Assembly (NCBI GenBank): GCA_963676395.1
Contig: OY781066.1
Location: forward strand, 672,001-736,000
Length of the DNA: 64,000 nt
Direction of reading: 5' to 3'
Source: a bacterium
GTDB taxonomy: Bacteria; Fidelibacterota; Fidelibacteria; Fidelibacterales; Fidelibacteraceae
Position numbers and translations under genes: made by a program. The notes beneath the pieces were generated by a model, which ran no database searches, was not told the origin of the DNA, and saw nothing but the letters and a program-made list of their open reading frames with translations. Shown one piece after another: positions 40,955 to 57,017 of the stretch (position 1 is the stretch's first letter; every line of letters starts with the position of its first letter).

Positions 40955-41794
40955 ATGGATAAGATCATGGAAGCTTATAGCAATTTATTAACACAAAAAC
41001 GCTACAGTCCCAATACCCAAAAAACATATATGGGATATTTTTCCGATTTCCGAAGATATTTCCGATTTAAAGACATCTATCATATTGGCAAAGATGAAAT
41101 CAATCGATATATCCTAGATCTTATTCAGACAAATAATATTTCTCCGAGTCAGCAAAATCAACGCATTAATGCAATCAAATTCTACTATGAAAAGGTTTTA
41201 GGTCGAGAGAAAGAGTATTATAACATTCAGCGACCAAAAAAAGAATATCATTTACCCAAGGTTCTAAGCAAAAAAGAAATAAAATGCATGATTCAATCAT
41301 GTGAAAACCTTAAACATAAATGTATTTTAATGATACTTTATTCGGCCGGATTAAGGCGTAGTGAATTATTAGATCTACAAATTGACGATATTGATTCCAA
41401 AAGAATGTTAATCTTGATCAAAGGTGCCAAAGGTAACAAAGACAGAATAACACTTTTATCCGAAAGGCTACTTAGCATGCTTCGGGATTACTATAAAAAA
41501 TACAAACCCGAAAAATATTTATTCGAAGGTCAAAGAGGAAATAAGTATTCAGCTTCTAGTGTTGCCAATATTCTTAAACATGCAACCCTCAAGGCAGGGA
41601 TCAGAAAAAATGTTACACCTCATATGCTTAGACATAGTTTTGCCACACATTTACTTGAACAAGGAACTGATTTAAGATATATTCAAGAGTTATTGGGCCA
41701 TAATAGCAGCAAAACAACAGAAATTTACACTCATATATCAAAAAAAACGATTACAAACATACAAAACCCTATGGATGACATGTTTGAAACATAA
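40955..41794 (+). CDS. Integron-integrase-like tyrosine recombinase (SAM-like N-domain; no IntI-specific insertion)
   Basis: YSPNTQKTY, SQQNQRINAIKFYY, LPKVLS, YSAGLRRSE, KGNKDR, HMLRHSFATHLLEQGTDLRYIQELLGH and TTEIYTH; full R-K-H-R-H-Y set. Confidence 0.88.
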   Translation: MDKIMEAYSNLLTQKRYSPNTQKTYMGYFSDFRRYFRFKDIYHIGKDEINRYILDLIQTNNISPSQQNQRINAIKFYYEKVLGREKEYYNIQRPKKEYHLPKVLSKKEIKCMIQSCENLKHKCILMILYSAGLRRSELLDLQIDDIDSKRMLILIKGAKGNKDRITLLSERLLSMLRDYYKKYKPEKYLFEGQRGNKYSASSVANILKHATLKAGIRKNVTPHMLRHSFATHLLEQGTDLRYIQELLGHNSSKTTEIYTHISKKTITNIQNPMDDMFET

Positions 41795-41809
41795 ATGCAA
41801 AATAAACAC

Positions 41810-41876
41810 AATAAACAATACATGCCATATTGGAGATGTATACACAATAGGCATACACTAACGTTGTGCCCAATTA
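41810..41876 (+). other. Putative primary recombination (attI-equivalent) site
   Basis: Ends in CATACACTAAC-GTT like the attC-type sites; GTTGTGCCCAATTA (41863-41876) complements the end of cassette 1. Confidence 0.65.
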
Positions 41877-41896
41877 AATGAAAAGACTACATAGTT

Positions 41897-42766
41897 ATGG
41901 AAGAAGAACTTAATTCAGAGATTAAAAAGTTGATTCCAAAAGTGTATGATGATGCATTACAACCATCAGTCATTGAGATTGGCAAATCAATAAAGGAAAC
42001 TGTTAAACTCGCCTTGAAACCCTACAATGGAATAATTTGGTCAATTGATAAATCTTTCGACTGGTTAACAAACACAATATCTCAAAGAGTTGAAAACTAT
42101 AAAATCAAAAAGATAAAAGCTCCGAATATTGAGACCACAATTAAGGTTATTCAGGGAGTACAGACAACAGGAGCACTAAATGATTTTGTTCCAAGACATC
42201 TATTTGCCAATCTATTGTTTTCGGAAATAAATGCAGAATACGGACATGAAACCCATCCAGCTTATGCAGAACTTTTAAAACAATTTACTCAAGAAGAATG
42301 TAAAATTTTATGCGTCATTGCAAATAGACCTTTATCAATATATTCAACAAGTACATTAAGCGATAATTATTTTGACTATAACTACAAGGAGAAAGAAAAA
42401 ATAAGATATAGCAATGAAACTCATGATTTACAAATAAAATGTGGATTTACAGAAACTGCACCTTTAAGTCTTTACATTGACAACTTATTAAGACTAGGTA
42501 TTATAGAAAGACAATCTACCAAACATGATGAAATACCAAGCTCTACAAAAGAAGAAGCATCTGTTTATCATAGAGAACTTAAACTATTTGAGGAATATCA
42601 AAAACGATATAAAAATGATAGTCGTTGTCCAAAAAGTGTAAAAATCAGAATTGATATAATTAAACCAACATATTTTGGTCAAAACTTTTTAGGTGCAATT
42701 GGTGCCAGCCAGTTTTATGACCACTACAGTAATATTTTTATAAAGCCAGATTGGATAAAAGATTAA
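41897..42766 (+). CDS. Abi-alpha/DUF4393-like protein (cassette 1)
   Basis: KVYDDALQPS..EIGK, LFANLL, HPAYAELLKQ, IDNLLRLGII and T.FG..F motifs. Confidence 0.7.
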   Translation: MEEELNSEIKKLIPKVYDDALQPSVIEIGKSIKETVKLALKPYNGIIWSIDKSFDWLTNTISQRVENYKIKKIKAPNIETTIKVIQGVQTTGALNDFVPRHLFANLLFSEINAEYGHETHPAYAELLKQFTQEECKILCVIANRPLSIYSTSTLSDNYFDYNYKEKEKIRYSNETHDLQIKCGFTETAPLSLYIDNLLRLGIIERQSTKHDEIPSSTKEEASVYHRELKLFEEYQKRYKNDSRCPKSVKIRIDIIKPTYFGQNFLGAIGASQFYDHYSNIFIKPDWIKD

Positions 42767-42785
42767 ACCTTTAAAGAAGACTAAT

Positions 42786-43403
42786 ATGTTTTTTAAAACA
42801 CCAAACATCAAGATTGAAAAAATTGGGAATGTCGAAATCAATCCTCATTATCATCCGATTTTTGAAAAAATTGCTTACGATACGTTTCAAAAATTTATAG
42901 AAAAGGAAAACAAGTTACATCAGGTACAATCTTTATCTGACCAAAAGGTTAAAAAAACAAAGTTTTTAAAAACGATTGACCTACTTGGAAAAATCATATC
43001 AATTATTTCGGGTATTGCAATAGTTGTATTTGTGATTTTTTTACTTGCTGGTAAAACATCAATTGGTAGTGTGCAAGTATCAACTCTTTTAACAGTTATT
43101 AGTTTCACTTTGATTGGTGGAATTATTTCTATTGGCGGTGTGCAAATGTTTTCTTTTAATGCCTCGTTGAGAAAGAGTGAAAATAAAATAAGAGAACACC
43201 TAAATCGAAATTTGGAATGTCCCTTTGATAGAATACTAAAAACTGATAACCCAAATTGGCACAATAGACAGCCGGGAAATCCAGATTTTTGTATGCGCTG
43301 TCCATTAGGGATTGATATTTCAGGTAATGTAGAGGGTGGACTAATACATGTTTGTAAAGTATACATGAATTATCATAAAAGGTGGTTAGACAACAAACAA
43401 TAA
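42786..43403 (+). CDS. Two-TM membrane protein with Cys/His-rich C-terminus (cassette 1)
   Basis: Two hydrophobic helices; ECPF...FCMRCP...HVC. Confidence 0.65.
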   Translation: MFFKTPNIKIEKIGNVEINPHYHPIFEKIAYDTFQKFIEKENKLHQVQSLSDQKVKKTKFLKTIDLLGKIISIISGIAIVVFVIFLLAGKTSIGSVQVSTLLTVISFTLIGGIISIGGVQMFSFNASLRKSENKIREHLNRNLECPFDRILKTDNPNWHNRQPGNPDFCMRCPLGIDISGNVEGGLIHVCKVYMNYHKRWLDNKQ

Positions 43404-43407
43404 CTGG

Positions 43408-43539
43408 GCACAACATTTTGTATAAGTAATGGCAGGCGATGTAGTAAATATCAATGTTTGTAGCGCGCTCAAACTGCGTAGCGGTTTGACAGGAAACTAC
43501 CACGCAATCTGCCACTACTCATACAATTTACCGTTGTGT
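43408..43539 (+). repeat. attC-like site 1
   Basis: GCACAAC...ttgtataagtaatggcag / ctgccactactcatacaa...GTTGTGT; 132 bp; very similar to site 2. Confidence 0.85.
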
Positions 43540-43562
43540 GTAATGCAAAAAAAAGACAGTAC

Positions 43563-46328
43563 ATGAAATTTAAAACCCAACATTTAAGAAATATTATAGA
43601 TGCTAACAATGATAATCGATTAGCGATTTTTGTTGGAGCTGGAGTTTCAAAAAATTCTGAAACTAAAGGACTAAAACTTCCAATATGGCAGGATTTAATT
43701 GATGATTTGAAGAAAGATTTAGAATTAACAAGTGAGACAGACTTTTTAAAAATAGCACAACTTTATTATCTGGAATTTAAAGAGTATTCATATCTTAAAA
43801 AACTAAAAAAATATTTTCCTGATAACATAAGACCTTCTTCAATACACAAACAAATATTTGATTTAAATCCTCAAGTAATTATTACAACTAATTGGGATAC
43901 AATTCTTGAGAAAACGATAGAAGAAAATGCATATATCTATGATGTAATTCGTTGTGATGAAGATTTAGTTAAATCCACAATTCAAAAGAAAGTGATTAAA
44001 ATGCATGGAGATTTTAAAAATCACAATATAGTTTTCAAAGAAGATGATTACTTGAATTATCAATATAATTTTCCATTAATCGAAAATTACGTAAAAAGCA
44101 TTTTGTCTACTCACACTGTACTTTTTTTTGGTTATTCATATAATGATATCGATTTCAAACAAATAATGAAATGGTTGCAAAATTATTCAAAAGTACAACC
44201 GCCAAGATATTTAACTGTCTTTTATGAAAATTCAACACAAAATAAGTATTTAGAAAATCATGGAATAACCACATTTGTGCTTGATGAACCCAATAGTTCA
44301 ATGAATCTTCAAAGCGACTATACTGAGAATACAAAGTATTTCTTAGATTTAATAAAAGATGATGAAAGAATTAACTTCTTAAAAACTGAGAATGACATTA
44401 TCGATTTTGTTTTCAATAAATTAAAGGTGCTTTCTGAACTCAATGGTATTTTAATTGAGCAAATACAAACCTCATTGACTAATTGTGGTTTTCTGTATGA
44501 TGATAGCAATAAAACAATATTGGAATTTCGAGATAAAATACTCACATATGACTTAAATAAAGAAAAGAGAAATATATATAAGGAATTTGTAAAAATACTA
44601 AACGCGCAAGACGATAAAGGATTATCAAACAAAACTTTATATAGTATTTTTGAAATTTTAAGTAAAGCCAATATACAAGGAATTGTTATCACTGAAGACG
44701 ACTTATCAACTAGAGAAAAGAAATATATAGTTCTAGATGATTATTTAACAGATAAAGAATTCAATCTTGAATCAAAGTACCTTGATTTTGATTTTTCATT
44801 TGAGGACAAATCAACAAATGATATTTATGAATTGCTTCAAAAATCATTCATTTTATATCAGCTTGAAGATTACGAAAAAGCATATGAGATTGTTGAAAAA
44901 ACAATAATACAGTGTTTAAAGCAAAAAAATTATACTGTTTTATTTATTTCAATGTTTAATAAAAATGTTCTTCTCTGGAAATTGAAATATGGCTTTTTTC
45001 AAAATAGAAAAGTATATGAAGATATTGAAGAATATAATTTAGAAGAGAAGTTTAATCAGCTTCCAAAAGATTTACAAGGAGCACTTAAGCCAATTTACAA
45101 CTTCTTAAACTCTTGTTATTTATATATATTTGCATATAGAATATCAGAAGAATTAAATAAAAAAGAGGGATCTAAAAAAACTATAGAATCTGGTGGTTTT
45201 GTTTTAAATTCTAATATTACCGAATCTTCTTCAAAGCATAAAAATCTAATTTCATTTATACTCCGCAACGGAATAATTTTAGAAGGGAGAAGCGAATTTC
45301 AAAGTATCAATAAATATTTCCTGAAAATTTCTATTATAAGACAGGTTCAGAATAAAGCAACTACATTTAACGAAATAGAGTTTTTTTCAGCGATAAAGTA
45401 TCTTTCGAATAAAGAATTAAAACATTTACTATCTGAATTTTACAAATATGATTCTGACAAAAAGGGCAAATTTGAAATTTCAGAAGAAAATAAAAATTGG
45501 TTAATTAATAAGGTGTTGATAAATCTTGTAAAAAGATATATAAACTCCGACAATGCGTTTAATACATTTGAAAAATACTTAGAAAATACAATCTTCTTAC
45601 TTTCATTAACAAAACTATCAGATGATGAAATTTCAAAAATTTTAGAAAGCTTTAATAACATTATCGATAAAGCTAAAAACACAATTGGAATTTACGAATC
45701 AATAAATCTTTTCTTGGGAAACCAATATAATCTTCATAATACATCCATTAATGAAAGTTCATTACTTAATTTGATAAAATCTATCATTAATAAATTTGTA
45801 AGCAAGCAATATAATGGATACGATTTTCATGCAATTACACGCAATGAAATTTCGAATTTATATGGTTATGCAAGAGAACAAAAAGCAATATTTAAAGAAA
45901 AAGCATTGATTAATAAATTAATTGATGCATCAAAAGAACTACCAATAGAAGAACAATTAAATATTTCAGAATCTCTTCTTCTTAGTATTTATGATATTTC
46001 TACTGATGAAATTAAGACCAAAATTAAAGAATATATTTTGAGCATAAAATCAAGTGAAACAAAAGAAAAACATGATTATTTAATATTTGAGCTCATCTTA
46101 GTTATTCGTGATTTTAAAAATTTAGAAACAGATTTAATCAAAGAGCTTGAAGAATATTTTGAACCATATAAAGACTCAAAGTCATTTTCTTCAATTTGGT
46201 ATTCAATAGATAGTCAGATAGATTATTTAATAAAAGAAAAGCAACTAACTCAGCTCAAAGAAGTTTCTTCAACGATAAAAACGTTAATAGAAAACTTTAA
46301 GAAAAGTGAAAGATTTTCAATACTTTAA
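43563..46328 (+). CDS. SIR2-domain defence protein, DSR2-like (cassette 2)
   Basis: IFVGAGVS, IITTNWD, KMHGD and VFKEDDYLNY..NFPLI...STHTVLFFGYS; long helical C-terminus; ATG 43563 preferred over the GTG inside the att site. Confidence 0.8.
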   Translation: MKFKTQHLRNIIDANNDNRLAIFVGAGVSKNSETKGLKLPIWQDLIDDLKKDLELTSETDFLKIAQLYYLEFKEYSYLKKLKKYFPDNIRPSSIHKQIFDLNPQVIITTNWDTILEKTIEENAYIYDVIRCDEDLVKSTIQKKVIKMHGDFKNHNIVFKEDDYLNYQYNFPLIENYVKSILSTHTVLFFGYSYNDIDFKQIMKWLQNYSKVQPPRYLTVFYENSTQNKYLENHGITTFVLDEPNSSMNLQSDYTENTKYFLDLIKDDERINFLKTENDIIDFVFNKLKVLSELNGILIEQIQTSLTNCGFLYDDSNKTILEFRDKILTYDLNKEKRNIYKEFVKILNAQDDKGLSNKTLYSIFEILSKANIQGIVITEDDLSTREKKYIVLDDYLTDKEFNLESKYLDFDFSFEDKSTNDIYELLQKSFILYQLEDYEKAYEIVEKTIIQCLKQKNYTVLFISMFNKNVLLWKLKYGFFQNRKVYEDIEEYNLEEKFNQLPKDLQGALKPIYNFLNSCYLYIFAYRISEELNKKEGSKKTIESGGFVLNSNITESSSKHKNLISFILRNGIILEGRSEFQSINKYFLKISIIRQVQNKATTFNEIEFFSAIKYLSNKELKHLLSEFYKYDSDKKGKFEISEENKNWLINKVLINLVKRYINSDNAFNTFEKYLENTIFLLSLTKLSDDEISKILESFNNIIDKAKNTIGIYESINLFLGNQYNLHNTSINESSLLNLIKSIINKFVSKQYNGYDFHAITRNEISNLYGYAREQKAIFKEKALINKLIDASKELPIEEQLNISESLLLSIYDISTDEIKTKIKEYILSIKSSETKEKHDYLIFELILVIRDFKNLETDLIKELEEYFEPYKDSKSFSSIWYSIDSQIDYLIKEKQLTQLKEVSSTIKTLIENFKKSERFSIL

Positions 46329-46346
46329 TGTGAAAGAAAGCACTAC

Positions 46347-46478
46347 ACACAACATTTTGTATAAGTAATGGCAGACAATGTGGTAAATATCAAGGTTTGT
46401 AACCCGCTCCAACTGCGTAGCTGTTTGACAGGGAAGTGCTACGCAATCTGCCACTACTCATACAATTTACCGTTGGCT
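46347..46478 (+). repeat. attC-like site 2
   Basis: ACACAAC...ttgtataagtaatggcaga / tctgccactactcatacaa...GTTGGCT; 132 bp. Confidence 0.85.
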
Positions 46479-46504
46479 GCAATTGAAATGAAACTCATCA
46501 CAAC

Positions 46505-47671
46505 ATGAAAATAAATAAACTTAGACTTGAAGGTGTTGGAGGAATAGAATTTATTGAATTAATTTTCAATAGCCAGATGAATCTTTTCTGTGGCCCTAAT
46601 GGAATTGGCAAGACAACAATTCTCGAATCCATAGCACACATTTTTTCAAATGGTCGAACGAACATTTTAAAACGGAATGTAAATAGTGCAAACAGCAAGA
46701 TTTGGATTCAAATTGATGATAGTGGACAAACAAAAGAGAAAGAAATTCATTTTGATACATTTGTGCCTGAAGTTCCAACAGAAATTAGACAAGCACTAAA
46801 TCAATACTCAAATCAAATTCTATCTTTAAAAACTAGTAGGATTTTTCAATACCAGTCATTGCAAGCCGTTAATAAAGATTCTTTAAAGGAAACACATTTG
46901 ATTTGGAATGATGCTATCAATGGCATTCAATTAGCCGATGTGAAAAACTGGTTTGTAAATAGATATTTATACTCAGCACATCCAGGAGCTTTAACAGAAG
47001 AACAACTTGCGAATTATGAATTAGCAAAATCTTGTTTTTCATTTTTAAATGAAGAGTTTTCTTTTTCAAAGGTTGATGCCTCTTCAAATGAAATTATGGT
47101 CAGTACTCCAAGTGGTACAATTTATTATGAATATTTATCATCTGGTTTTAAATCAATAATCTCAATATTATTTGGAATAATAAAGGAAATTGAATTTAGA
47201 TTTACTAATCCAAGAATAAAAGCTGTTGATTTTGAGGGGATAATTCTAATTGATGAAATAGAACTTCACTTACATCCAGAGTGGCAAGAAAAGGTTGCAA
47301 GTGTACTCTTAAAGGCATTTCCAAAAGCCCAGTTTTTTGCAACAACTCATAGTCCACATATCATTCAGACAGCGTTACCAAATCAAATAATTGCCTTGGA
47401 GGCAAGTGATAAGAAAACAATCCAGAGAGAGCTTCCTGATACTGAATTTGGATTTCAAGGATGGACAATAGAAGAAGTATTAACTGATGTAATGGGAATG
47501 AAAGATACTAGGACCGAATTATTTAATCTGCTTATGTACGATTTTCAGATAAATATAGATAAAGAAAATTATGAAGGTGCATTAAAGATATTTGAAACTG
47601 TAGATTCTTTATTGCATCCTCACAACGAACTTAGAAAACTTTTAAAATTTCAACTCGCTGGAATTAAATAG
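46505..47671 (+). CDS. ptuA: ABC/AAA ATPase, Septu PtuA-like (cassette 3)
   Basis: GPNGIGKT, LSSG, ILIDEIELHLHPEWQ and TTHSP motifs; followed by an HNH gene. Confidence 0.75.
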   Translation: MKINKLRLEGVGGIEFIELIFNSQMNLFCGPNGIGKTTILESIAHIFSNGRTNILKRNVNSANSKIWIQIDDSGQTKEKEIHFDTFVPEVPTEIRQALNQYSNQILSLKTSRIFQYQSLQAVNKDSLKETHLIWNDAINGIQLADVKNWFVNRYLYSAHPGALTEEQLANYELAKSCFSFLNEEFSFSKVDASSNEIMVSTPSGTIYYEYLSSGFKSIISILFGIIKEIEFRFTNPRIKAVDFEGIILIDEIELHLHPEWQEKVASVLLKAFPKAQFFATTHSPHIIQTALPNQIIALEASDKKTIQRELPDTEFGFQGWTIEEVLTDVMGMKDTRTELFNLLMYDFQINIDKENYEGALKIFETVDSLLHPHNELRKLLKFQLAGIK

Positions 47672-47678
47672 AAATTAA

Positions 47679-48422
47679 ATGATTAAGCTTAATAGACTTT
47701 TTACACCTCTCGGATTATCTCCAGCTTTTATTAAAGCACAAACACTTGAATTTAAAACAAATGGAACAAATGTATGGAATGTTAACTGGTTAAAAGAATC
47801 GCTACTACAGTTAAGTTTTCAAAAATGTGCCTATTGTGAATGTTCTTTGAGCGTTGAAAGTAATTATATGGAAGTTGAGCATTTTGAAGACAAAAGTGAT
47901 TACCCAGATAAAGTTTTAATTTGGGAAAACCTTATTCCTTCTTGCAAGAAATGTAATGGTTCGAAAAGTACTCACGATGTAAATAAAGAACCAATTGTTA
48001 ATCCATTTATCGATAATCCCTCTGATGAATTTTATTTTAGATTATACAAGATAAAAGGAATTAAAGAAAAGGGTATTCGAACAGAATCCATATTAAATTT
48101 AAATCACCCTGAAAGAGCAATAAAAAAACGATTTGAAATTGGTGAAGCCTTAGAAAACTTAATTGAACAAGCATTTGAACGGTTGATTAATTTTGAGGAA
48201 AGTTCAACCGTACTTCGAAGAAACAAGCTAAATAATATTGTTGAAGAAATTCTACAAGAGAGTCAACCTGAATCTATATATTCTGCAACTTGTGCAACAA
48301 TTCTTCATTCATGTTTGAGATATAATGAAATCAAGATAAAAATGGAAAAATTAGGTTTATGGACTTCAGAATTTGATAATTTACATGAAAAATCGAAAGA
48401 AATTGTACTAGAAATGAAATAA
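47679..48422 (+). CDS. ptuB: HNH endonuclease, Septu PtuB-like (cassette 3)
   Basis: KCAYCE, EVEHF and WENLIPSCKKCN..K motifs. Confidence 0.75.
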   Translation: MIKLNRLFTPLGLSPAFIKAQTLEFKTNGTNVWNVNWLKESLLQLSFQKCAYCECSLSVESNYMEVEHFEDKSDYPDKVLIWENLIPSCKKCNGSKSTHDVNKEPIVNPFIDNPSDEFYFRLYKIKGIKEKGIRTESILNLNHPERAIKKRFEIGEALENLIEQAFERLINFEESSTVLRRNKLNNIVEEILQESQPESIYSATCATILHSCLRYNEIKIKMEKLGLWTSEFDNLHEKSKEIVLEMK

Positions 48423-48429
48423 CAACTGC

Positions 48430-48559
48430 TGCCAACAATGTATATACAAAATAGGCGAGATAGTAGTAAATTCAAGGGTTGTAGCCCGCTTCAAAATTGT
48501 GACGGTTTGACAAGTTTGAAGCCCGCAATCGCCTACTTTGCATATACTTACCGTTGGCA
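48430..48559 (+). repeat. attC-like site 3
   Basis: TGCCAAC...gtatatacaaaataggcga / tcgcctactttgcatatac...GTTGGCA; 130 bp. Confidence 0.85.
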
Positions 48560-48598
48560 ACAATACAGGACACACCTCAGTTGTAAAGATTATGAAAT

Positions 48599-51115
48599 AT
48601 GATTGAAAAGAAAATTGACAAATCTATTCTCCTTGATGATTTGGAGCTATTTAAATATTTAAAGGATAATGATAGTGAATTCGTATCGTTAATTGATGAT
48701 ATAAATGCCAAAGTTAAGAACCTGCTCAATAGTGGTATACCAAAAGTATTTTCATCATACACCTTACATGACATTGAACATTCATATCGGATAATAAAGT
48801 ATATGAGTGACATTATTCCTGATATTTCAAAATTAAATGAACTTGAAATTACTATTCTGATACTTGTTGGATTGTTGCATGATGTTGGAATGGCTGTGTC
48901 CACAGAGGATTTAGAGTTAATTAAAAATGATAATTACCCTCATTTTGATGTGAAGTTTTCTGCAACTAAAAAATATGTTGGAGGTGATGAAAACTTAGCA
49001 TTGCAGGAATATATAAGAATGTATCATGCTCAAATGTCGGGAATATACATTGAAGAAAAGTTAAAAGACAAGCTGAAAATTTCTGAAAACTCTACCTTAT
49101 CTTTCATGGATGATGTTATTAAAATCTGTAGAAGTCATACTGAGTCATATGAATGGATTAAGCAAAATTTGAATCCGTACACTGTATTAGGTGATTATGA
49201 ATACAATTCCTTATATATTTCTCACTTATTGAGACTTGGAGACATCCTAGATATTGATGAAAAAAGAACTCCTTTAAGCTTGTATAACTTGATAGCTCCT
49301 AAAGGTAAAAGTGAAGAGGAATGGGATAAGCATTTCATAATTCAAAATTATGAGAAAATTGAAATAAATCCGAAATCAAAATTAAAGCAGATTGCTTTTC
49401 ATGGTCATTGTTCTAACGCACATATACACCGTAAATTACTAGAATTTTTTGATTGGGTTAATGAGGAACTTTTGAATGCATTAGCATCAACGAATAATAT
49501 GCAAGAGCAGTATAGGCTAAATCTCGAAAATTCAATCCTTCAAAATATTGTAACCGAGGGCTACACATTTTCTGATTATAAAATGAAACTCGATTTTGAA
49601 GCAATTAGTTCTTTATTGATGGGGGAAAAAATATATGGAGGAAAAGAACTAGGATTAAGGGAGCTTATTCAAAATTCGATAGATGCATGCCGATATAGGA
49701 CAGAATTAGAAAACATAGGAAAAGAATTTGGCGAAATAGATTATGAGCCTAAAATAAAAGTTATTGTAGACAGTAAAAACCAGATTATTTCAATAAAGGA
49801 TAATGGGGTAGGTATGTCAATTGGTGTAATAAAGAATCACTTCTTGAATATTGGCAAATCTTATTATAATTCATCCGAATTCTTGTTGCAAGATGTCGAG
49901 TATAAACCAATAGGAAATTTTGGAATTGGGTTCCTTGCATGCTTTATGTTATCTAATAATATTAAAGTAGTGACTAGATATTATAATAGCCAAGACAAAT
50001 ATATTATTGAACTTGAAAAAGGAAACGAATTTACATCTATGTTGAAATCAAATGACGTAAGATTTGAAGGGACGGAAGTTGTTTTTAATCATGATGAATT
50101 TATGAGTGTTTTCAATGATAAAATTGAAGATATATCAAATTTTCTGAAAAAATATTTTATTACTGATGGCATTGAATTAGAACTTATAAATGTAGATAAG
50201 AAAGAACGGATTTCTATCGAAAATAAATTTGACAAAAACATAACACCAGATAAAGGATTTCTAATTGATTTAAGTTCTTATTTAAAGGAAATAGAAGGCT
50301 ATGCGATTGTTAAACACCGCAATAGCTTTATTCACACTTTAGATGATATTGGCTTTGAAGGTGAACTTTATTTTTATGATTATGAAAAGGGATTATATGA
50401 AGTAGAGGATTTATCGAAAGTTGATATTGATTTTTATATACTTAACAATAGAATTAGATATTTCAATATTCCATTAGTTGAAAATGAAAATGTATCTGAT
50501 TACCTCAATGGTTTAAGATATACTGATGATGATGTATCAGAAGTAATTGATAAAATGGTCAATGACTTAAGATGGATTTCTATACTCCCTCAAAGAGATA
50601 CTGATTCAATGATGTCTGACCAAATTATAGATAATGGAGATACTTTTTTTGACAATTTAGAGTTCAGCGACTTAGTAAAATTAGGTCACGATGACACATG
50701 TAAAACAAAGATGTTTGAGAAAGAGCAAAATATATTTGAAGGAGAAAAAAGTAACTTATATATGCCTTTTGAGCAAAAAGAAGACAATTACTGGAGATAC
50801 TATTATAGAAAAAAAGAAAAACAAAATTTGTATGTAAGAAATGTTTTAATCAAGGACTTTGATTTTTCTTTTAATACTAAAGCATCCATTTTTGACATAA
50901 ATGATGTAATAGTCAATGTACAATCAAAAAAAGTTGTTCCTGATATTTCTAGAAATAATTTGGATTCAGAAACAGAAAATAGACTTAACTATTCGATAAG
51001 CAGAGCAATTCATATTGGATTACTTAATAGTGAAAAATTGTTAGATAATGAAAGAGAAACTCTTAAGTTATTTATTGATGAGTTTTATACTGACAAAACT
51101 GAATTTGATAAATAA
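48599..51115 (+). CDS. HD-domain plus HSP90-like (GHKL) ATPase fusion (cassette 4)
   Basis: YTLHDIEHS, LLHDVGM and LRLGDILD; then RELIQNSIDA, DNGVGM and IGNFGIGFLACF. Confidence 0.85.
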   Translation: MIEKKIDKSILLDDLELFKYLKDNDSEFVSLIDDINAKVKNLLNSGIPKVFSSYTLHDIEHSYRIIKYMSDIIPDISKLNELEITILILVGLLHDVGMAVSTEDLELIKNDNYPHFDVKFSATKKYVGGDENLALQEYIRMYHAQMSGIYIEEKLKDKLKISENSTLSFMDDVIKICRSHTESYEWIKQNLNPYTVLGDYEYNSLYISHLLRLGDILDIDEKRTPLSLYNLIAPKGKSEEEWDKHFIIQNYEKIEINPKSKLKQIAFHGHCSNAHIHRKLLEFFDWVNEELLNALASTNNMQEQYRLNLENSILQNIVTEGYTFSDYKMKLDFEAISSLLMGEKIYGGKELGLRELIQNSIDACRYRTELENIGKEFGEIDYEPKIKVIVDSKNQIISIKDNGVGMSIGVIKNHFLNIGKSYYNSSEFLLQDVEYKPIGNFGIGFLACFMLSNNIKVVTRYYNSQDKYIIELEKGNEFTSMLKSNDVRFEGTEVVFNHDEFMSVFNDKIEDISNFLKKYFITDGIELELINVDKKERISIENKFDKNITPDKGFLIDLSSYLKEIEGYAIVKHRNSFIHTLDDIGFEGELYFYDYEKGLYEVEDLSKVDIDFYILNNRIRYFNIPLVENENVSDYLNGLRYTDDDVSEVIDKMVNDLRWISILPQRDTDSMMSDQIIDNGDTFFDNLEFSDLVKLGHDDTCKTKMFEKEQNIFEGEKSNLYMPFEQKEDNYWRYYYRKKEKQNLYVRNVLIKDFDFSFNTKASIFDINDVIVNVQSKKVVPDISRNNLDSETENRLNYSISRAIHIGLLNSEKLLDNERETLKLFIDEFYTDKTEFDK

Positions 51116-51122
51116 GTACTGT

Positions 51123-51253
51123 TGGCAACAATGTGTATAGTGCATAAGGGTTTCAGAGGTTTTCGAGCATTATCACCCACATCAATTTTGGGTGGTAACT
51201 TGACAGGTTTGAAGCCCGCAACCCCTTACGACACCATACACTCAACGTTAGCG
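51123..51253 (+). repeat. attC-like site 4
   Basis: TGGCAAC...gtgtatagtgcataaggg / cccttacgacaccatacac...GTTAGCG; 131 bp; very similar to site 5. Confidence 0.85.
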
Positions 51254-51295
51254 GTAATTTAAACTCCAGAAATTGGACCTAATAACATCAAAATT

Positions 51296-51985
51296 TTGAA
51301 AGAAAAAGACACATGCTGTTACTGTGGTAAGAACTCTGAGTCAAGAGACCATATCCCATCCAAAAATTTATTGGAAAAACCATTTCCAGATAATTTATTA
51401 ACAGTACCGTCTTGCATAAAGTGTAATCAATCATTTTCATTAGACGAAGAATATTTTCTAAATGTATTAGTTGAGATTTCAAACAATCCGACTTTAATCG
51501 CAAAAAAAGAGCCTAACGGTAATGTTTATAAAGCACGAAAGCGGTCAAAAAAATTAAATGATAGAATTGAAAATTCATTGATTCAGTTAGAAGATGGAAA
51601 AATCTATTTTAGAATGGAAGAAAACAGAATTAAAAAAGTTATAGAGAAAAATGCACTTGGACTCTACTTCCATAAATACCATAAACTTGCTAACCTGAAT
51701 AAATTTAATTGTACTGGATTCTATCCGTTTTCAGTTGAAGAAACAAGACCTGCAGAAATTTTCATGTTGACTTATTCTGAAAAATTTAGAGCCAAAAGAT
51801 GGACAACAATTCAAGAGAATGTTTTTTCATATATAGTTGTACGAGATTGGAGGAGAGGAAAAAAATTGACAATGATTTTTCATATTCATAACACAGTATG
51901 GTGTATTATTGAAATTCCATTTCCAACATCAACGAAAAGATTAAAAAGACAAAAGAATTCTCATACTGAAAAAATAAATTTATGA
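51296..51985 (+). CDS. HNH endonuclease-domain protein (cassette 5)
   Basis: CCYCG...SRDHIP...LTVPSCIKCN; TTG start. Confidence 0.75.
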   Translation: MKEKDTCCYCGKNSESRDHIPSKNLLEKPFPDNLLTVPSCIKCNQSFSLDEEYFLNVLVEISNNPTLIAKKEPNGNVYKARKRSKKLNDRIENSLIQLEDGKIYFRMEENRIKKVIEKNALGLYFHKYHKLANLNKFNCTGFYPFSVEETRPAEIFMLTYSEKFRAKRWTTIQENVFSYIVVRDWRRGKKLTMIFHIHNTVWCIIEIPFPTSTKRLKRQKNSHTEKINL

Positions 51986-52398
51986 ATAAACCACAAAAAT
52001 ACATTATTTCATTTCTACCTGCTGCAATATTTTTGTTCAACCAAATATTGATAATGTTTATTCGACCGATTATTCCTGCCAATAGATTTGAGTTACTATC
52101 AGAAATATTTGGTTGGTTACCCAACTATTTAGCTTCAGTCGGATTTGTTCTTATGAGTATGCTCCTATTAATAATTATAAAGGAATTAAAGCTGGATAAA
52201 AAGTACGCACGTTATTATAATATATATATGATTTTTATATCAGTGATTGCATTATTTGGTTTTATATGGTGGGAAAATCAACAGAAAAACAACTCGATGA
52301 TATATGATTTAAAAGATATTTATGCAACAGTTTGCGGCGTTATTACTGGATATTCAATATTTTTAATATTATACTTTAAACATAAATTCAACAACTAA
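51982..52398 (+). CDS. Small 4-TM membrane protein
   Basis: Hydrophobic helices; LPN and D..DI.A motifs. Confidence 0.6.
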   Translation: MNKPQKYIISFLPAAIFLFNQILIMFIRPIIPANRFELLSEIFGWLPNYLASVGFVLMSMLLLIIIKELKLDKKYARYYNIYMIFISVIALFGFIWWENQQKNNSMIYDLKDIYATVCGVITGYSIFLILYFKHKFNN

Positions 52399-52455
52399 AA
52401 GATATTAATTCTGATAAATTAACGAACAAGTTGACTTTAAATGACAAACACCAGC

Positions 52456-52586
52456 ATACAACAATGTGTATAATTCATAAGGGTTTCAGAGGTTTTCGAT
52501 CGGTTTCACCCGAATCAATTTTGGGTGGTAACTTGATAAGTTTGAAGCCCACAATCCCTTACGAAATCATACACTTAACGTTAGCG
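52456..52586 (+). repeat. attC-like site 5
   Basis: ATACAAC...gtgtataattcataaggg / cccttacgaaatcatacac...GTTAGCG; 131 bp. Confidence 0.85.
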
Positions 52587-52645
52587 TGTATTACCACAAC
52601 AGAGACATAGATCGCAAAGTTTCTTTATAGGAATATTTAGCTAAA

Positions 52646-53089
52646 ATGAGAATTGAGAAAATTATCAATAACAAAAAGAAATACCTTGATTTATTGCTGT
52701 TAGCGGATGAGTCAGAGGATATGATTGACAGATATTTGGAAAGTGGAGATATGTTTGCACTATTCGATGATGACGTTAAAACTGTTTGTGTTGTTGCTGC
52801 AATAGATAAAGAAACTTGCGAATTGAAAAACATAGCAACTTATGAGAAATATCAAGGTAGAGGATATGCTAAAGCATTAATAAATTATATTTCTAATTTT
52901 TACAAAAACGATTATAAAACAATGCAACTCGGAACAGGCGATATCCCAGCAATTTTGTCATTTTATGAAAATTGCGGATTCAAAATATCACATCGATTAA
53001 AGAATTTTTTTACTGACAATTATGACCATCCAATGTTTGAAGACGGAATACAGCTTATAGATATGGTTTATCTAAAGAAAAAATTATAA
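52646..53089 (+). CDS. GNAT N-acetyltransferase
   Basis: LLLLAD, ELKNIA...YQGRGYA and FYENCGF motifs. Confidence 0.9.
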
Positions 53090-53105
53090 TAGCTAAATTA
53101 TTAAG

Positions 53106-53285
53106 ATGAAATCCATTGATGTAAAACAAGCAATAGATAGTGATGTCGAAAGAACAACCCGGTTATTTTATGATACAATTCAGAATGTCAATATAAGGGA
53201 TTATTCCCAGGAAGAGGTTGACGATTGGTCATCATGGAAAACTGATACAAATAAGTGCTTGGATAAAATGAAATTGAGAAATTAA
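53106..53285 (+). pseudogene. Truncated YafP-like GNAT N-terminus
   Basis: My translation MKSIDVKQAIDSDVERTTRLFYDTIQNVNIRDYSQEEVDDWSSW..., stops after 59 aa. Confidence 0.6.
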
Positions 53286-53340
53286 TTAATGAATATTCAA
53301 AAAATTAAATTACCGGCATAACAGGTGAACTATATAAGAC

Positions 53341-54339
53341 ATGAGATTACAAATAAAACATAAAGAATTGAAGAGATTGAAAAAAAGAACAGGATTTACC
53401 ATTACTATTTTTGTTGCAATTATGAATGTTATTACAATACATGCGCAAACCAGGTCACTTAAAGAAACTGATTTAATTTGTTCAAATAATGAAAAACCTC
53501 ATGTCGCATTTTCTTTTGATGATGGTTCAACAAAAGACAAACTTACTTACAAAAATTCGGAATGGAATTCGATGATACGAAAACAACTGAAGGATAATCA
53601 TATTCAAGCAGTTTGGTTTGTTGCGGCAAAAGGAATGGATAACGACAAAGGTAAACAGTTGTTGGAAAAGTGGAACAAAGATGGCCATCTGATCGCAAAT
53701 CACACGTATAGCCATTTCAATTACAATGATTCTTTAATGACTTGTAAAGCATATACCAAAGATATACTGAAATGCGATTCATTGATAAGCAGTTATACAA
53801 ATTATAAAAAAATAGTTCGCTTTCCGTATTTAAACGGAGGTAACACTATCTCGAAACGAGACAGCTTGCTTGATTTTCTTCAACAAAATGATTATCGGCA
53901 AGGATGGGTAACTATTGATAATTGTGAATGGTATATAAATATGAGATTGATGAATCGTTTAAAAGAAAATCCTGATGCCGATTTTAGTGGATTTGGAGCG
54001 TATTACGTTAATCATATTTTCGAAATGGCACAACATTACAATAAGCTTTCAACTCAGATTAATCAACGGCAAATAACACACTCTCTCTTATTGCATTTCA
54101 ATCTGACTTCAGCACTGTTTTTAAATGATTTGATTGAAAAATTCAGAAAAGAAGGATGGATAATTGATAATTACAGCGAAGCAATGAATGACCCGGTTTA
54201 TTCAGGTCAACCTATTGCAATACCATCCGAACAAAGTATAATTTGGATGCAAGCAAAGCAAAAAGGTGGATTTGAATTAGATTACGATGAAGAAAACATC
54301 AAACATCAGGAAGACAAAATGGCTAAATTGGGATTATAA
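53341..54339 (+). CDS. Polysaccharide deacetylase (CE4/NodB) family protein
   Basis: FSFDDG, NHTYSH, RFPY and LLLH motifs. Confidence 0.85.
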   Translation: MRLQIKHKELKRLKKRTGFTITIFVAIMNVITIHAQTRSLKETDLICSNNEKPHVAFSFDDGSTKDKLTYKNSEWNSMIRKQLKDNHIQAVWFVAAKGMDNDKGKQLLEKWNKDGHLIANHTYSHFNYNDSLMTCKAYTKDILKCDSLISSYTNYKKIVRFPYLNGGNTISKRDSLLDFLQQNDYRQGWVTIDNCEWYINMRLMNRLKENPDADFSGFGAYYVNHIFEMAQHYNKLSTQINQRQITHSLLLHFNLTSALFLNDLIEKFRKEGWIIDNYSEAMNDPVYSGQPIAIPSEQSIIWMQAKQKGGFELDYDEENIKHQEDKMAKLGL

Positions 54340-54356
54340 AAATTACTCCCAATACT

Positions 54357-54656
54357 ATGCTTGATTTCGGATCATCACAAAATCCATTGGTAACAAGTGT
54401 ACATCATCAATCAGTAAAGAAAACAGGGGAAAATTTCCGGGTAATTGCAACGTCATTAGATAGAAAAGTCGTAGAAGCTATTGCCAATACAAAATTTAAG
54501 AATGTTTACGGCGTTCAGTTTCATCCGGAGTTTTCAACTTTATATAAACAGAAAGAGTTTAGAAATTCAAAAAACAATATTGTTTCATTTAACGATAATG
54601 ATAAACAATTTCTTAAACATTTTTGGAAAGATTTCAGTTTAAGATTATATGCTTAA
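54357..54656 (+). pseudogene. C-terminal fragment of a peptidase C26/glutamine amidotransferase
   Basis: SVHHQSV, VEAI and GVQFHPE present; catalytic Cys region absent. Confidence 0.7.
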
Positions 54657-54753
54657 AAAACAAAGAAAACGATGGGCATGTCCATCATGTGGTGGTGTCG
54701 TTTATTTTTATCATTACAGATGTAGTAAATGTGATAAAACTGTAGATGTGTGA
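54649..54753 (+). pseudogene. Zn-ribbon C-terminal gene fragment (DUF3795-like tail)
   Basis: My translation MLKKQRKRWACPSCGGVVYFYHYRCSKCDKTVDV*, ending just before an att site. Confidence 0.5.
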
Positions 54754-54764
54754 TTTTCCACATC

Positions 54765-54908
54765 GCCTAACAGCGAATATGCTCTACGGCTTCGCCTTGG
54801 CCTTCTTCAAATTAACCCTTTGAATATTTTCTAAAAAATTATGATATTACTCTATAGAATATATTCACACCCACAAAGGGCTGAGTTTACTTCATATTTT
54901 CGTTAACG
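54765..54908 (+). repeat. attC-like site of a different sequence family
   Basis: GCCTAAC...gaatatg / catattt...GTTAACG; 144 bp; downstream GTTAACGGCAAT matches the end of the pepE cassette. Confidence 0.7.
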
Positions 54909-54931
54909 GCAATTAAACAAGAGAGACAAAC

Positions 54932-56113
54932 ATGACACAGAGAACACTTACTTTACTCCTCATTTTACTCTTAAGCTTCATTGGAACTGAGAGTTTGAAA
55001 GCACAGCAAAACACAGTCAAGCAAGATGAAACTATTTTTGTTTGGGGCGGAGATATTAACACAAAGTTTGTCCAATATGTCGCTGATCTGACAAAAAAAG
55101 AACATCCCAAAATCTGTTACTTACCAACGGCAAGTGCAGACAACCCGGATAATATTAAATATTGGGAAAATATATGTAATAGGTTACAATTAGATACTCT
55201 AATTCTAAAAGTGTGGGTAAGTTCTTCAGATAAAAATCAATCATTTGAAGACATCCTTCTGAACTCTGATGCCATCGTGGTTGGCGGGGGTAATACCTTG
55301 AATATGCTGGGAATTTGGAAAGCGCAAGGCATAGATAATATTTTGAAAAAAGCATTAAAAAATGGAATAATTTTATCGGGAGGAAGTGCCGGTTCAATAT
55401 GTTGGTTTCAGAACGGTATCAGCGATTCACGCCCTGTCAACTTAAGTATTGTCAAAGGCTTGGGTTTTTTACCTTTTAGCAATTGCCCGCATTACTCACA
55501 AGAATCAAGGAAAGACTTATATCATCAAATGATAAAAAACAGGAAAATGAATCCGGGTTATGCAACTGATGAGCTATCCGGAATCCTTTTCAAAAATGGG
55601 AAAGCTGTAAAATCCATCAGCCAAAGCGACCTACACAAGGCTTATTTTGTAAATCGTAAAAAAGGAATAATTAAAGAGACTAAACTCAAATCAGACTTTT
55701 TACTTAAGAAAAATGCTCTTCCTGAAGGCTCTTATTCCTCCCAATCCATAAAAAAGAAAATTAATGATCTATTAGATTCCAATGACAGTTCCTCGCCAAT
55801 GAATGCGTGTATTTCTGACATAAAATCCATAAGATTAAACAAAGAGAACATGAGTGAATCGGCAAAGAAAAAAGTGTTGGATATGGGTATCGAAAAAATA
55901 TTCATTTACCAAAATAAAATAGCTGGAATTGTTAACAACGCCTACCTTGACTCTTTTGGATATGGCATGTGGTATTATTATAACTGCAACGGTATTTGGA
56001 AAAGTATGGGAGAAGACATAGGCGGAAAAACAATATTTGAAAGTGAAATTACATTTCGGGAAAAAGCAAAAACAATTATCAAAAAAGCTGAAAATAAATT
56101 AAACTGCCGCTAA
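54932..56113 (+). CDS. Secreted peptidase S51 (dipeptidase E-like) with C-terminal extension (cassette)
   Basis: LPTASAD, VGGGNT, GGSAG and CPHY motifs; signal peptide. Confidence 0.85.
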   Translation: MTQRTLTLLLILLLSFIGTESLKAQQNTVKQDETIFVWGGDINTKFVQYVADLTKKEHPKICYLPTASADNPDNIKYWENICNRLQLDTLILKVWVSSSDKNQSFEDILLNSDAIVVGGGNTLNMLGIWKAQGIDNILKKALKNGIILSGGSAGSICWFQNGISDSRPVNLSIVKGLGFLPFSNCPHYSQESRKDLYHQMIKNRKMNPGYATDELSGILFKNGKAVKSISQSDLHKAYFVNRKKGIIKETKLKSDFLLKKNALPEGSYSSQSIKKKINDLLDSNDSSSPMNACISDIKSIRLNKENMSESAKKKVLDMGIEKIFIYQNKIAGIVNNAYLDSFGYGMWYYYNCNGIWKSMGEDIGGKTIFESEITFREKAKTIIKKAENKLNCR

Positions 56114-56175
56114 CATTTTGTTTAAGCAAAAGCCGGGAAATACCGCACACTCCAACAATTTACTGTTGATAGCAA
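56103..56175 (+). repeat. Internally deleted attC-like site
   Basis: ACTGCCGCTAAC-attttgtttaag...caatttactGTTG resembles both ends of sites 1/2 without the middle. Confidence 0.55.
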
Positions 56176-56225
56176 GTGCAGCAGAGCCACAGAGTACTTA
56201 AACAACCACTAAAAAAGATTAAAAT

Positions 56226-56900
56226 ATGGGATACTATATTAACTTAGAAAAAATATCAATTGATGATTATCGGATAAAATTAGAATCAGCTTATCTGCCA
56301 CCGAGCAGACTGATCCTTAAGGACAAATTGGATGAACGATTTGGATATTTTAAGAGCATTGGAATTAAAAATGTTAAAGAATTGATACAGATACTCAAAA
56401 AAAAGGACAAAATAGCTGAACTATCAAAAGTTGATTGTTTATCGGGTGATTATTTGAAAATATTGCTTAGAGAATTAAACAGTACACTACCAAAACCTAA
56501 TAAGTTTGCCGATTTTACTGGAATTTCACAAGAAACAGTTGATAAACTAAAAAATATTGGCATAAAAAATACAGCGAAATTGTATGATAAAGTTTTAACA
56601 AAATCAGACCGGCAAAAGCTTACTGAGGCAACAGGCATAGCTGACAAAGAGATTTTAGAATTGACTAAATTGACAGATTTATCAAGAATTAAATGGGTTG
56701 GAGTGACGTTTGCCAGAATGCTTTACGATTTAAAAATAGATACAGTGGAAAAAGCATCAAAATCTGACCCGGTCAATTTACATTCAATGATAAACCAATT
56801 AAATAAGGAAAAAAGCATTTATAAAGGACAAATTGGATTGAACGACATTAAAATATTCGTGAATGCCGCAAAAGAAATACCTTTGGAGATAGAATATTAA
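56226..56900 (+). CDS. DUF4332-like helix-hairpin-helix protein (last cassette)
   Basis: DLSRIKWVGVTFARML and LKNIGIKNT motifs. Confidence 0.7.
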   Translation: MGYYINLEKISIDDYRIKLESAYLPPSRLILKDKLDERFGYFKSIGIKNVKELIQILKKKDKIAELSKVDCLSGDYLKILLRELNSTLPKPNKFADFTGISQETVDKLKNIGIKNTAKLYDKVLTKSDRQKLTEATGIADKEILELTKLTDLSRIKWVGVTFARMLYDLKIDTVEKASKSDPVNLHSMINQLNKEKSIYKGQIGLNDIKIFVNAAKEIPLEIEY

Positions 56901-57017
56901 TAAATAAACAAAAAATTATGCACACCCTCATACCTTACTTGCAATATACTCAACATTAAATAAGCAAATCTCTTTAAACTTCTGCCAACATTTTAACCGT
57001 TCAACTTTTCAACCCCA

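Follow-up and report, generated by a model that had tools for sequence, protein, structure and literature searches.

The window analysed here, a stretch of 64,000 nucleotides (nt) of contig OY781066.1 from a bacterium of the Fidelibacteraceae, carries at 40955-57001 an array of gene cassettes headed by a tyrosine recombinase gene, and in five of its eight intervals the two ends bear complementary words that are private to the cassette. These words are read here as the two halves of the outer stem (R box) of the cassette's own recombination site, a stem that would be whole only in a free circle; the probability of this reading was put at about 80%.

A free circle would read ...N-C-N7'-AAC-(imperfect palindrome of ~116 nt)-GTT-N7-A-N..., and the bottom strand of this ~122-nt site would fold as one long hairpin. 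Its outer stem would span 14 positions (AAC/GTT, 7 variable base pairs (bp), a conserved T·G wobble that is A·C on the top strand, and 3 bp). Beyond it would come an asymmetric internal loop (~6 × 3 nt), then ~20 bp of inner stem, in which two further wobbles are conserved, and a variable tip. The recombinase at the head of the array, which is related to the integron integrase IntI, would carry out strand exchange at the first variable base that follows GTT or immediately ahead of it, the partners being a cassette site and either the attI-like site or another att site. Insertion would split the stem, with its 3' half becoming the first bases of the cassette behind the GTT of the previous site and its 5' half remaining in front of the cassette's own site.

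The first-pass annotation of the window had described five cassettes with ends of the form GTT-N6-AAT and ACT-N6-AAC. Pairing was scored by comparing the 6 bases after each GTT with the reverse complement of the 6 bases before the AAC of the next site. The words GTT-GTGCCC-AAT (41863) and ACT-GGGCAC-AAC (43403-43414), and GTT-GTGTGT-AAT (43533) and ACT-ACACAC-AAC (46342-46353), were present as described and paired at 6/6 positions; GTT-GGCTGC-AAT (46472) and ACT-GCTGCC-AAC (48425-48436), GTT-GGCAAC-AAT (48553) and ACT-GTTGGC-AAC (51118-51129), and GTT-AACGGC-AAT (54902) and ACT-GCCGCT-AAC (56103-56114) were likewise present and paired at 5/6. The A/C mismatch between AAT and ACT was found in 5/5 of these cassettes. 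The statement that each cassette is marked in this way proved too strong, as pairing held in 5/8 intervals and failed in three (1, 2 and 3 of 6). On permutation of the eight end flanks, 35 of 40,320 re-assignments reached the observed sum of 33 matches, and pairing in the window is far above chance. The observation is thus real though overstated, and comparative evidence supports well its reading as the footprint of circles.

To simulate circularization, each site was kept with its own left flank, given successively each of the nine right flanks that follow a GTT, and folded as the bottom strand. In this check, which the first-pass annotation had proposed, a cassette's own start flank ranked 1/9 for cassettes 1-4. 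The predicted folds of circle and array forms had energies of -31.6 vs -24.1, -32.5 vs -22.3, -30.8 vs -28.8 and -23.7 vs -19.3 kcal/mol for cassettes 1-4, respectively, a gain of 2.0 to 10.2 kcal/mol for the circle form, and the three non-pairing intervals ranked 6, 4 and 6 of 9. From this behaviour and from the flank statistics below we infer that the cassettes existed as circles.

For comparison with other arrays, a covariance model was built from 16 aligned sites of the window's genome and six others. Search with this model returned 89 sites, spread over 72 sources. Homologues of the recombinase were located at 68 loci in public genomes, almost all of Bacteroidota, and most of the sites lie downstream of such a gene and share its orientation; two loci (L015 and L031) held nine sites each, and in three (L062, L065 and L066) the sites lay upstream of and divergent from the recombinase gene. 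Neighbours were defined as consecutive detected sites, so that an overlooked intervening site would score as a failure. Among the 55 neighbouring pairs, in 16 arrays, 37 paired at 6/6, 11 at 5/6 and 7 at 4/6 or fewer; outside the window's genome (43 pairs) the corresponding counts were 34 at 6/6 and 6 at 5/6. As controls, flanks taken from a single site paired at a mean of 2.6/6 (n = 77), starts of site i against ends of site i+2 at 2.9/6 (n = 39), and all starts against all ends at a mean of 2.24/6, with 6/6 in 99 of 6,864 combinations. Loss of the pairing in a larger set of homologous arrays had been named as the outcome that would speak against the first observation; the pairing persisted, at 5/6 or better in 48/55 pairs.

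The same rule was followed in homologous cassettes. Relatives of the window's PtuA were found at 44 metagenome loci, three of which were matched by the site model. The Septu cassette of locus L110 (PtuA 70% identical) is bounded by GTT-ACCAGC-AAT and ACT-GCTGGT-AAC and that of locus L119 by GTT-ATAGCC-AAT and ACT-GGCTAT-AAC, both pairing at 6/6, against 5/6 for the words GGCTGC and GCTGCC of the window. The private word thus differs among the three homologous Septu cassettes, whereas pairing and the A/C position are preserved. Sites of the same kind form three more clusters in the window's genome (2.34 Mb, one contig), at C1:1833784-1838650 (minus strand), 1104795-1108531 and 1133706-1139680, each without a recombinase in its vicinity; neighbouring flanks there pair at 6, 5, 4 and 5 of 6. 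In lacking a recombinase these clusters resemble CALINs (clustered attC sites without an integron integrase).

The composition of the outer stem was tabulated over 45 distinct flank pairs preselected for pairing at 5/6 or better at positions 1-6 after GTT, positions 7 onward being unselected. Watson-Crick pairs were found at positions 7, 9, 10 and 11 in 33, 39, 44 and 36 of the 45 pairs, respectively, and at position 8 in 0/45 (A·C in 39, A·G in 5 and A·A in 1); at position 12 they dropped to 16/45. An outer stem of 13-14 bp, as originally proposed, was borne out at 14 positions, made up of GTT, 7 variable bp, the conserved mismatch and 3 bp. The ACT/AAT flank, suggested at the same time as a recognition determinant, is conserved throughout the family, which is consistent with a role in recognition or in strand marking. 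Seven stem positions vary freely yet stay complementary, which argues for selection on the folded form. As for the crossover, placed at or next to GTT by the first-pass annotation, the first variable base or the spot immediately 5' of it is favoured, since flank ownership switches right after GTT; a cut at G|TT specifically is not singled out, because GTT/AAC never varies and such a cut is indistinguishable from one placed one to three bases to the left.

In the inner hairpin, 13/16 consensus stem pairs showed compensatory double changes among the 16 aligned sites. The 5' arms of 75 sites were set against their reverse-complemented 3' arms. Where the two differed, A vs G was the commonest case (178 instances) and recurred, as judged by eye, at the same two stem positions; such a position is an A·C mismatch when the top strand is folded and a G·T wobble when the bottom strand is. 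This consistent polarity, A·C on the top and G·T on the bottom, points to the bottom strand, which as a folded single strand would be the substrate of recombination. Over 84 sites the predicted bottom-strand fold was the more stable in 69 and equal in 2 (mean -17.0 vs -15.0 kcal/mol), and it was the more stable in 6/6 of the first sites folded; for att1 the values were -24.1 (bottom) and -21.0 kcal/mol (top). The spacer between outer and inner stems was asymmetric in the predicted folds (~6 vs 3 nt), with a purine bulge of 2-3 nt. No conserved single-base bulge of the inner stem was seen by eye in alignments, based on predicted folds, for 40/75 sites.

A different account of the pairing is that the sites are recombined as double strands in the manner of Xer/dif, as in the pdif modules of Acinetobacter, and that complementarity is a by-product of palindromic binding arms. 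The closest matches of the recombinase among solved structures were the archaeal XerA proteins 4a8e (1.6e-44) and 5hxy (8e-39), and the protein resembles XerA and XerC/XerD in its similar length and in having no extra domain; an outer stem of 12-14 bp is also close to the length of an Xer binding arm. Even so, seven positions that vary freely and remain complementary fit selection on pairing and not a sequence read by a protein, the stem halves adjoin only in the circle, and an asymmetry of A·C vs G·T between strands is meaningless in duplex DNA. Xer acts on one dif site of 28 bp, whereas hairpins of 122 nt stand in arrays here; all of these sites have one orientation, while pdif modules alternate. 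Recombination of this kind was considered improbable.

The recombinase gene (40955-41794, plus strand) encodes 279 residues with Phage_int_SAM_4 and Phage_integrase domains (Pfam). The sole NCBIfam model scoring above its cut-off was NF040815 ('site-specific tyrosine recombinase/integron integrase'; 237.9 bits, cut-off 220). The integron-integrase model TIGR02249 gave 209.8 bits, under its cut-off of 265, and aligned in two blocks with a gap at model positions 182-238; NF011946 gave 137.2 bits, under its cut-off of 435. In an alignment to VchIntIA (2a3v), residues 180-203 of the query (24) stood opposite chain residues 181-247 (67). By these alignments the recombinase is without the additional domain of IntI, with ~43 residues missing there. 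Motifs at residues 132, 159, 223, 246 and 256 are presumed to hold the catalytic residues. Three Xer-like recombinase genes were found in the genome in all, the other two being 33-35% identical to that of the array and grouping in a tree with the housekeeping Xer of related genomes, away from the array recombinase. One of them, 33% identical, lies at 38199-39095, two genes upstream of the array recombinase.

The tree was a quick maximum-likelihood reconstruction of 83 rows (three dropped for length, identical rows merged, midpoint root) that included neither proteobacterial IntI nor archaeal XerA. The short, domain-less form and IntI together were split from the Xer of the same genomes with a Shimodaira-Hasegawa-like approximate likelihood-ratio (SH-aLRT) support of 100. 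IntI (8 rows) formed one clade (100) and 56/60 short-form rows one group (93); among the exceptions, L071 fell with Xer, and L054, L059 and L060 lay outside the main group. Homologues from Bacteroidales, 46-48% identical to the window's recombinase, fell in the same clade as the latter. At least 7,977 protein clusters, of 7,999 scored candidates, matched the recombinase at E<=1e-30, and the source names of its relatives spanned several phyla, including Cloacimonetes and Deferribacteraceae. Among the 120 proteins listed, those with a source name were named XerD, integrase, site-specific integrase, tyrosine-type recombinase and, once, 'hypothetical protein', and never integron integrase.

True IntI, above the TIGR02249 cut-off of 265 with 356-451 bits, was found in 9/41 related genomes (G025, G029, G031, G032, G034, G035, G036, G037 and G039; loci L075-L083), three of which (G029, G031 and G035) carry both a true IntI and the short domain-less form. 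Around true IntI genes of related genomes, site model R1 matched at 0/8 loci, most of the contigs ending near the gene, and the lone site-model match among the 11 sources searched was at a domain-less locus. Repeats behind the IntI gene of locus L093 were considered as the same sites and dropped, being unlike them. An apparent extra stretch of ~67 residues in the recombinases of L065 and L066 was considered as an IntI domain and rejected, as the gene is broken there by ~200 bp with stop codons. This insert (~10560-10770) lies between the 'YLFEGQ...' and 'HALRHSYATHLL' blocks and is the same in both recombinase copies of one Chitinophagales metagenome-assembled genome.

In integrons the core site belongs to the cassette and complements the cassette's own inverse core, a complementarity that reportedly goes back to work of Hall and Stokes in the 1990s. 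The array might be an ordinary integron of this kind, with a bona fide IntI and ordinary attC sites, its pairing being that of the RYYYAAC/GTTRRRY core. It is like an integron in being an array of promoter-poor cassettes, each closing in an imperfect palindrome bounded by AAC...GTT, and in that what follows each GTT is part of the next cassette and complementary to its inverse core, as it is here in 48 of the 55 pairs at 5/6 or better. The better folding of the bottom strand, the unpaired spacer between stems and the variable tip also resemble attC, whose folded bottom strand has been described as having a spacer left unpaired, bases in extrahelical position and a tip that varies (PMC8946536). 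Anti-phage genes are carried here and, going by the part of the preprint available, in Vibrio integrons (10.1101/2024.07.02.601686); the recombinase is nearer to IntI than to Xer in the tree, and true IntI occurs in the nine related genomes named above.

Against this identity stand the TIGR02249 score and its two blocks, the residues missing at the position of the extra domain of VchIntIA, and the placement of IntI as a separate clade. In the available parts of the papers, IntegronFinder defines IntI by its extra domain, and Bacteroidetes yielded lone integrases and one complete integron only (PMC9024848, PMC4889954); the insertion was called 'not fully conserved' in an integron-like subgroup by Smyshlyaev et al., in the portion of that paper available (PMC8138268). 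The paired flank of the window spans 14 positions with a conserved A·C/G·T, against 7 in integrons, and the predicted folds hold two conserved wobbles where attC has extrahelical bases, a conserved bulged base of the inner stem not being seen. The window's recombinase is, unlike IntI, co-oriented with the cassettes, its attI-like site holds a short palindrome, and the site model failed at the true IntI loci of the same phylum, though most contigs there end near the gene. That the array is an ordinary integron was judged distinctly improbable.

Pairing between cassette ends could also act in RNA, as a panhandle in which the paired transcript ends of each cassette serve processing or stability. 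The cassettes are co-oriented behind one gene, possibly on one transcript, and the paired ends bracket coding units. On the top strand, however, the non-Watson-Crick pairs of the outer stem were 46 A·C or C·A (39 at position 8 and 7 elsewhere) vs one T·G: in sense RNA, A·C is unpaired and G·U would be nearly absent, and only antisense RNA would benefit from the non-canonical positions. A panhandle was thus regarded as very improbable. It is scarcely credible that the sites are inserted small elements (like miniature inverted-repeat transposable elements or repetitive extragenic palindromes) or terminators, with the flank relation as a target-site footprint: they are intergenic, structured and repeated, and form three recombinase-free clusters in the genome, but the flanks of one site match as a direct repeat at only 1.73/6 on average (n = 74), on which ground a target-site duplication was rejected, the right flank of one site is the inverted complement of the left flank of the next, which insertion cannot yield, and arrays start at a fixed distance behind the recombinase gene.

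Several results weigh against reading the private words as halves of a stem split on insertion. In the window, the intervals from 51247 to 52460 (1/6), from 52580 to ~54781 (2/6) and from 56165 to 56987 (3/6) do not pair, two of them within the range described by the first-pass annotation and the third just after it. The end flank of cassette 7 is paired equally well by the right flank of att4 and by that cassette's own start, the fold of a cassette 7 circle (peptidase) ranked 2/9 with the att4 flank slightly better, and words of the AGCGG(C/T) type recur, so that some matches reflect shared usage. In the larger set, 7/55 neighbouring pairs matched at 4/6 or fewer; the 55 pairs are not independent, the arrays coming from related recombinases and some cassettes being duplicated (45 distinct flank pairs among the 48 good ones), and the alignment behind the pair counts was fitted to the model. 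The top strand was predicted to be the more stable in 13/84 sites. The extra domain of IntI contacts extrahelical bases of the folded site; since the enzyme here is without that domain and no conserved inner-stem bulge was seen, the single-strand mechanism cannot simply carry over from integrons.

The presumed entry site (41795-41865, plus strand) consists of a short imperfect palindrome (~41838-41858), TAAC and a GTT (41863-41865) that lies 69 nt past the recombinase stop codon. Directly behind this GTT, 7/7 nt agree with the end flank of cassette 1. In a survey of 21 loci including the window, the GTT with the best 7-base match to the end flank of the first detected site was chosen, and the match was 7/7 in 15 and 6/7 in 6 loci, a choice that inflates the match where the GTT sits far from the gene. 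A comparable GTT, 40-173 nt past the stop codon and after a short palindrome, was present in 14/21 loci, 12 of which match at 7/7 and 2 at 6/7.

All features of the array are on the plus strand, and the eight intervals are separated or ended by five full sites (122-124 nt), one degenerate site, one of 56 nt and one of 15 nt. Cassette 1 (41866-43411; N6 6/6, stem halves at 41866-41876 and 43401-43411) encodes an Abi_alpha/PDC-S47 protein and a membrane protein (Pfam, PADLOC) and is followed by att1 (43412-43535; 124 nt, an AAC...GTT hairpin site scoring 111.2 bits with the covariance model). Cassette 2 (43536-46350; 6/6) encodes a SIR2-like protein of 930 residues with a ThsA-like N-terminus (Pfam SIR2_2; PADLOC ThsA, 103 bits) and is followed by att2 (46351-46474; 124 nt, 90% identical to att1, 113.4 bits). 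Cassette 3 (46475-48433; 5/6) holds a complete Septu pair, PtuA and PtuB (PADLOC, 517 and 292 bits), and att3 (48434-48555; 122 nt) is the best match of the model, with 126 bits. Cassette 4 (48556-51126; 5/6) encodes a protein of 838 residues with HD-CE and HATPase_c domains (Pfam), followed by att4 (51127-51249; 123 nt, 90.5 bits).

Interval 5 (51250-52459; 1/6, circle fold rank 6/9) has unpaired ends and holds two open reading frames (ORFs) of unknown family; it is followed by att5 (52460-52582; 123 nt, 88% identical to att4, 95.5 bits). Interval 6 (52583-54904; 2/6), also with unpaired ends, encodes GNAT, polysaccharide deacetylase and the C-terminal fragment of a glutamine amidotransferase (Pfam) and closes in a degenerate site (54781-54904) that was missed by the covariance model and folds poorly. 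Its part at 52583-54780 includes a short GNAT-like piece (~53100-53290) and the amidotransferase piece of 99 residues (54357-54656), no internal sites were recognizable within it, and from its content the interval looks like decayed or fused cassettes. Cassette 7 (54905-56111; 5/6, circle fold rank 2/9) encodes a peptidase S51 family protein and is followed by att7 (56112-56167), a short site form of 56 nt whose ends align with att1 and att2 (repeat families D4 and D5). The last interval (56168-57001; 3/6, ends unpaired) encodes a DUF4332 protein (Pfam) and closes in a minimal site of 15 nt, AAC-ATTTTAACC-GTT (56987-57001). The right flanks of att4, att5 and att6 (AGCGGT, AGCGTG and AACGGC; 51250-51265, 52583-52598 and 54905-54918) all resemble the partner of the end flank at 56103-56111 before att7, a similarity considered as a possible source of the three non-pairing intervals, and the att4 flank also pairs at 6/6 with an end flank at C1:1139611 in another cluster of the same genome; this could reflect a rearrangement between arrays or simply a word in common use.

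The array holds at least 14 co-oriented ORFs and has a G+C content of 29.9%, against 38.1% for the genome, individual cassettes ranging from 25.0 to 35.0%. Six sequencing runs contained sampled words of the DNA, one of them at a share of 0.98 and the other five at 0.05-0.09, low shares that carry no information on habitat or mobility. Four cassettes gave matches to anti-phage families (Pfam, NCBIfam and PADLOC), and no Imm or SUKH family was found among the 14 cassette ORFs scanned with Pfam. No Rfam family reached its gathering threshold in the window; in loci L066 and L036 the sole match was an unrelated Flavo-1 RNA, located beside the L066 array locus (L066:13791-13951, minus strand; 55.4 bits, gathering score 42).

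Further observations were made at the related loci. One cassette of ~412 bp, with the private flank ATGCCCG, occurs twice in tandem in L030 (12087-13033) and again in L036 (13014-13551), two arrays of one Bacteroidales chromosome, which suggests, as read from these copies, duplication or movement of a cassette. In blastn comparisons with contigs of the same genus the recombinase gene alone aligned, and cassette turnover at a conserved locus was not demonstrable there. Many public contigs (L004, which is the same as L155, L006, L007, L009, L014, L021, L022, L033, L039 and others) run on for no more than a few hundred bases past the recombinase gene, where repetition of the sites or variability of the cassettes probably broke the assembly; the alignment of L004 with the window stops at 41865, where the attI-like GTT ends, and one base before L004 itself does. 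Some sites end in GTC, not GTT, and are followed by one common sequence (L066 at 4311 and 7638, L065 at 1005, L036 at 14533 and 17925, and L067 at 300). In L066 (6004-7539) this sequence is an insertion sequence with a DDE transposase (DDE_Tnp_1_6 and DUF772), for which reason a group II intron, considered at first sight, was rejected; the element seems to target one fixed position of att sites, like some insertion sequences and introns at attC.

Clusters of recombinase-associated acquired interbacterial defence genes (rAID-1) were described by Ross et al. in 2019, in a study that reportedly appeared later in Nature. Going by the main text of the preprint, they were found in 226/423 Bacteroidales genomes and were defined by two or more co-directional downstream genes with a G+C content of <=41% (bioRxiv 10.1101/471110). 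The array of the window resembles these clusters, as far as that text describes them, in the XerD-like tyrosine recombinase at its 5' end, in the co-directional downstream genes of low G+C content (29.9% vs 38.1%) and in its repetitive intergenic sequences. It differs from them in cargo, which in rAID-1 consists of orphan immunity genes against interbacterial toxins and in the window is anti-phage, immunity families having been sought here by Pfam only; a gut Bacteroidales host, moreover, belongs to rAID-1 and is not shown for the window's array. The main text of that account reports motif enrichment only, with no hairpin, split stem, private flanks or conserved mismatch (10.1101/471110). In a 2025 preprint the mechanism of rAID biogenesis was called open, and the words 'integron' and 'hairpin' are absent from the part of it available (PMC12247911).

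The architecture is thus already published, in the main text cited, as the rAID-1 of gut Bacteroidales (Ross 2019, 10.1101/471110), the split-stem principle is that of the classical integron, and the setting is a known integron-like family that is mechanistically uncharacterised. What is new is the precise anatomy, namely an outer stem that is extended, private to the cassette and marked by a conserved A·C/G·T. A literature search, with most subscription journals and bioRxiv supplements outside it, returned no account of a split 14-position stem, a private 7-mer or a conserved mismatch.

Integrons are held to require the extra domain of IntI and the bulged bases of attC for recombination of folded single strands. 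A wider interpretation, tentative and rated at somewhat less than even odds, is that integron-type gene capture has a second, widespread branch, to which these arrays belong. Its recombinases would be a sister lineage of IntI, with the extra domain either lost or never present, and would recombine folded single-stranded sites, strand and register being set by three conserved G·T wobbles and by the 14-position stem with its private 7-mer and not by extrahelical bases. This interpretation draws on the thousands of protein clusters matching the recombinase at E<=1e-30 in several phyla and on the arrays confirmed in 16 loci. If it is true, the rAID-1 of gut Bacteroidales would be one specialised member of the branch, and the family would offer a testable intermediate between Xer/dif and IntI/attC.

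The footprint that first revealed circular integron cassettes is strongly conserved here despite a domain-less enzyme and sites without obvious bulged bases, and the private covarying stem is direct comparative evidence for selection on a folded form of that site. For the choice of strand, the conserved A·C/G·T positions offer concrete candidates that can be mutated. For clusters of the rAID type, whose biogenesis was called open in 2025 in the available part of that preprint (PMC12247911), the split stem gives a hypothesis of mechanism. Bacteroidota have been held, in the part of the survey available, to be nearly free of integrons (PMC9024848); the rule GTT + N7 + A...C + N7' + AAC delimits cassettes, mostly anti-phage here, where tools of the IntegronFinder type report little.

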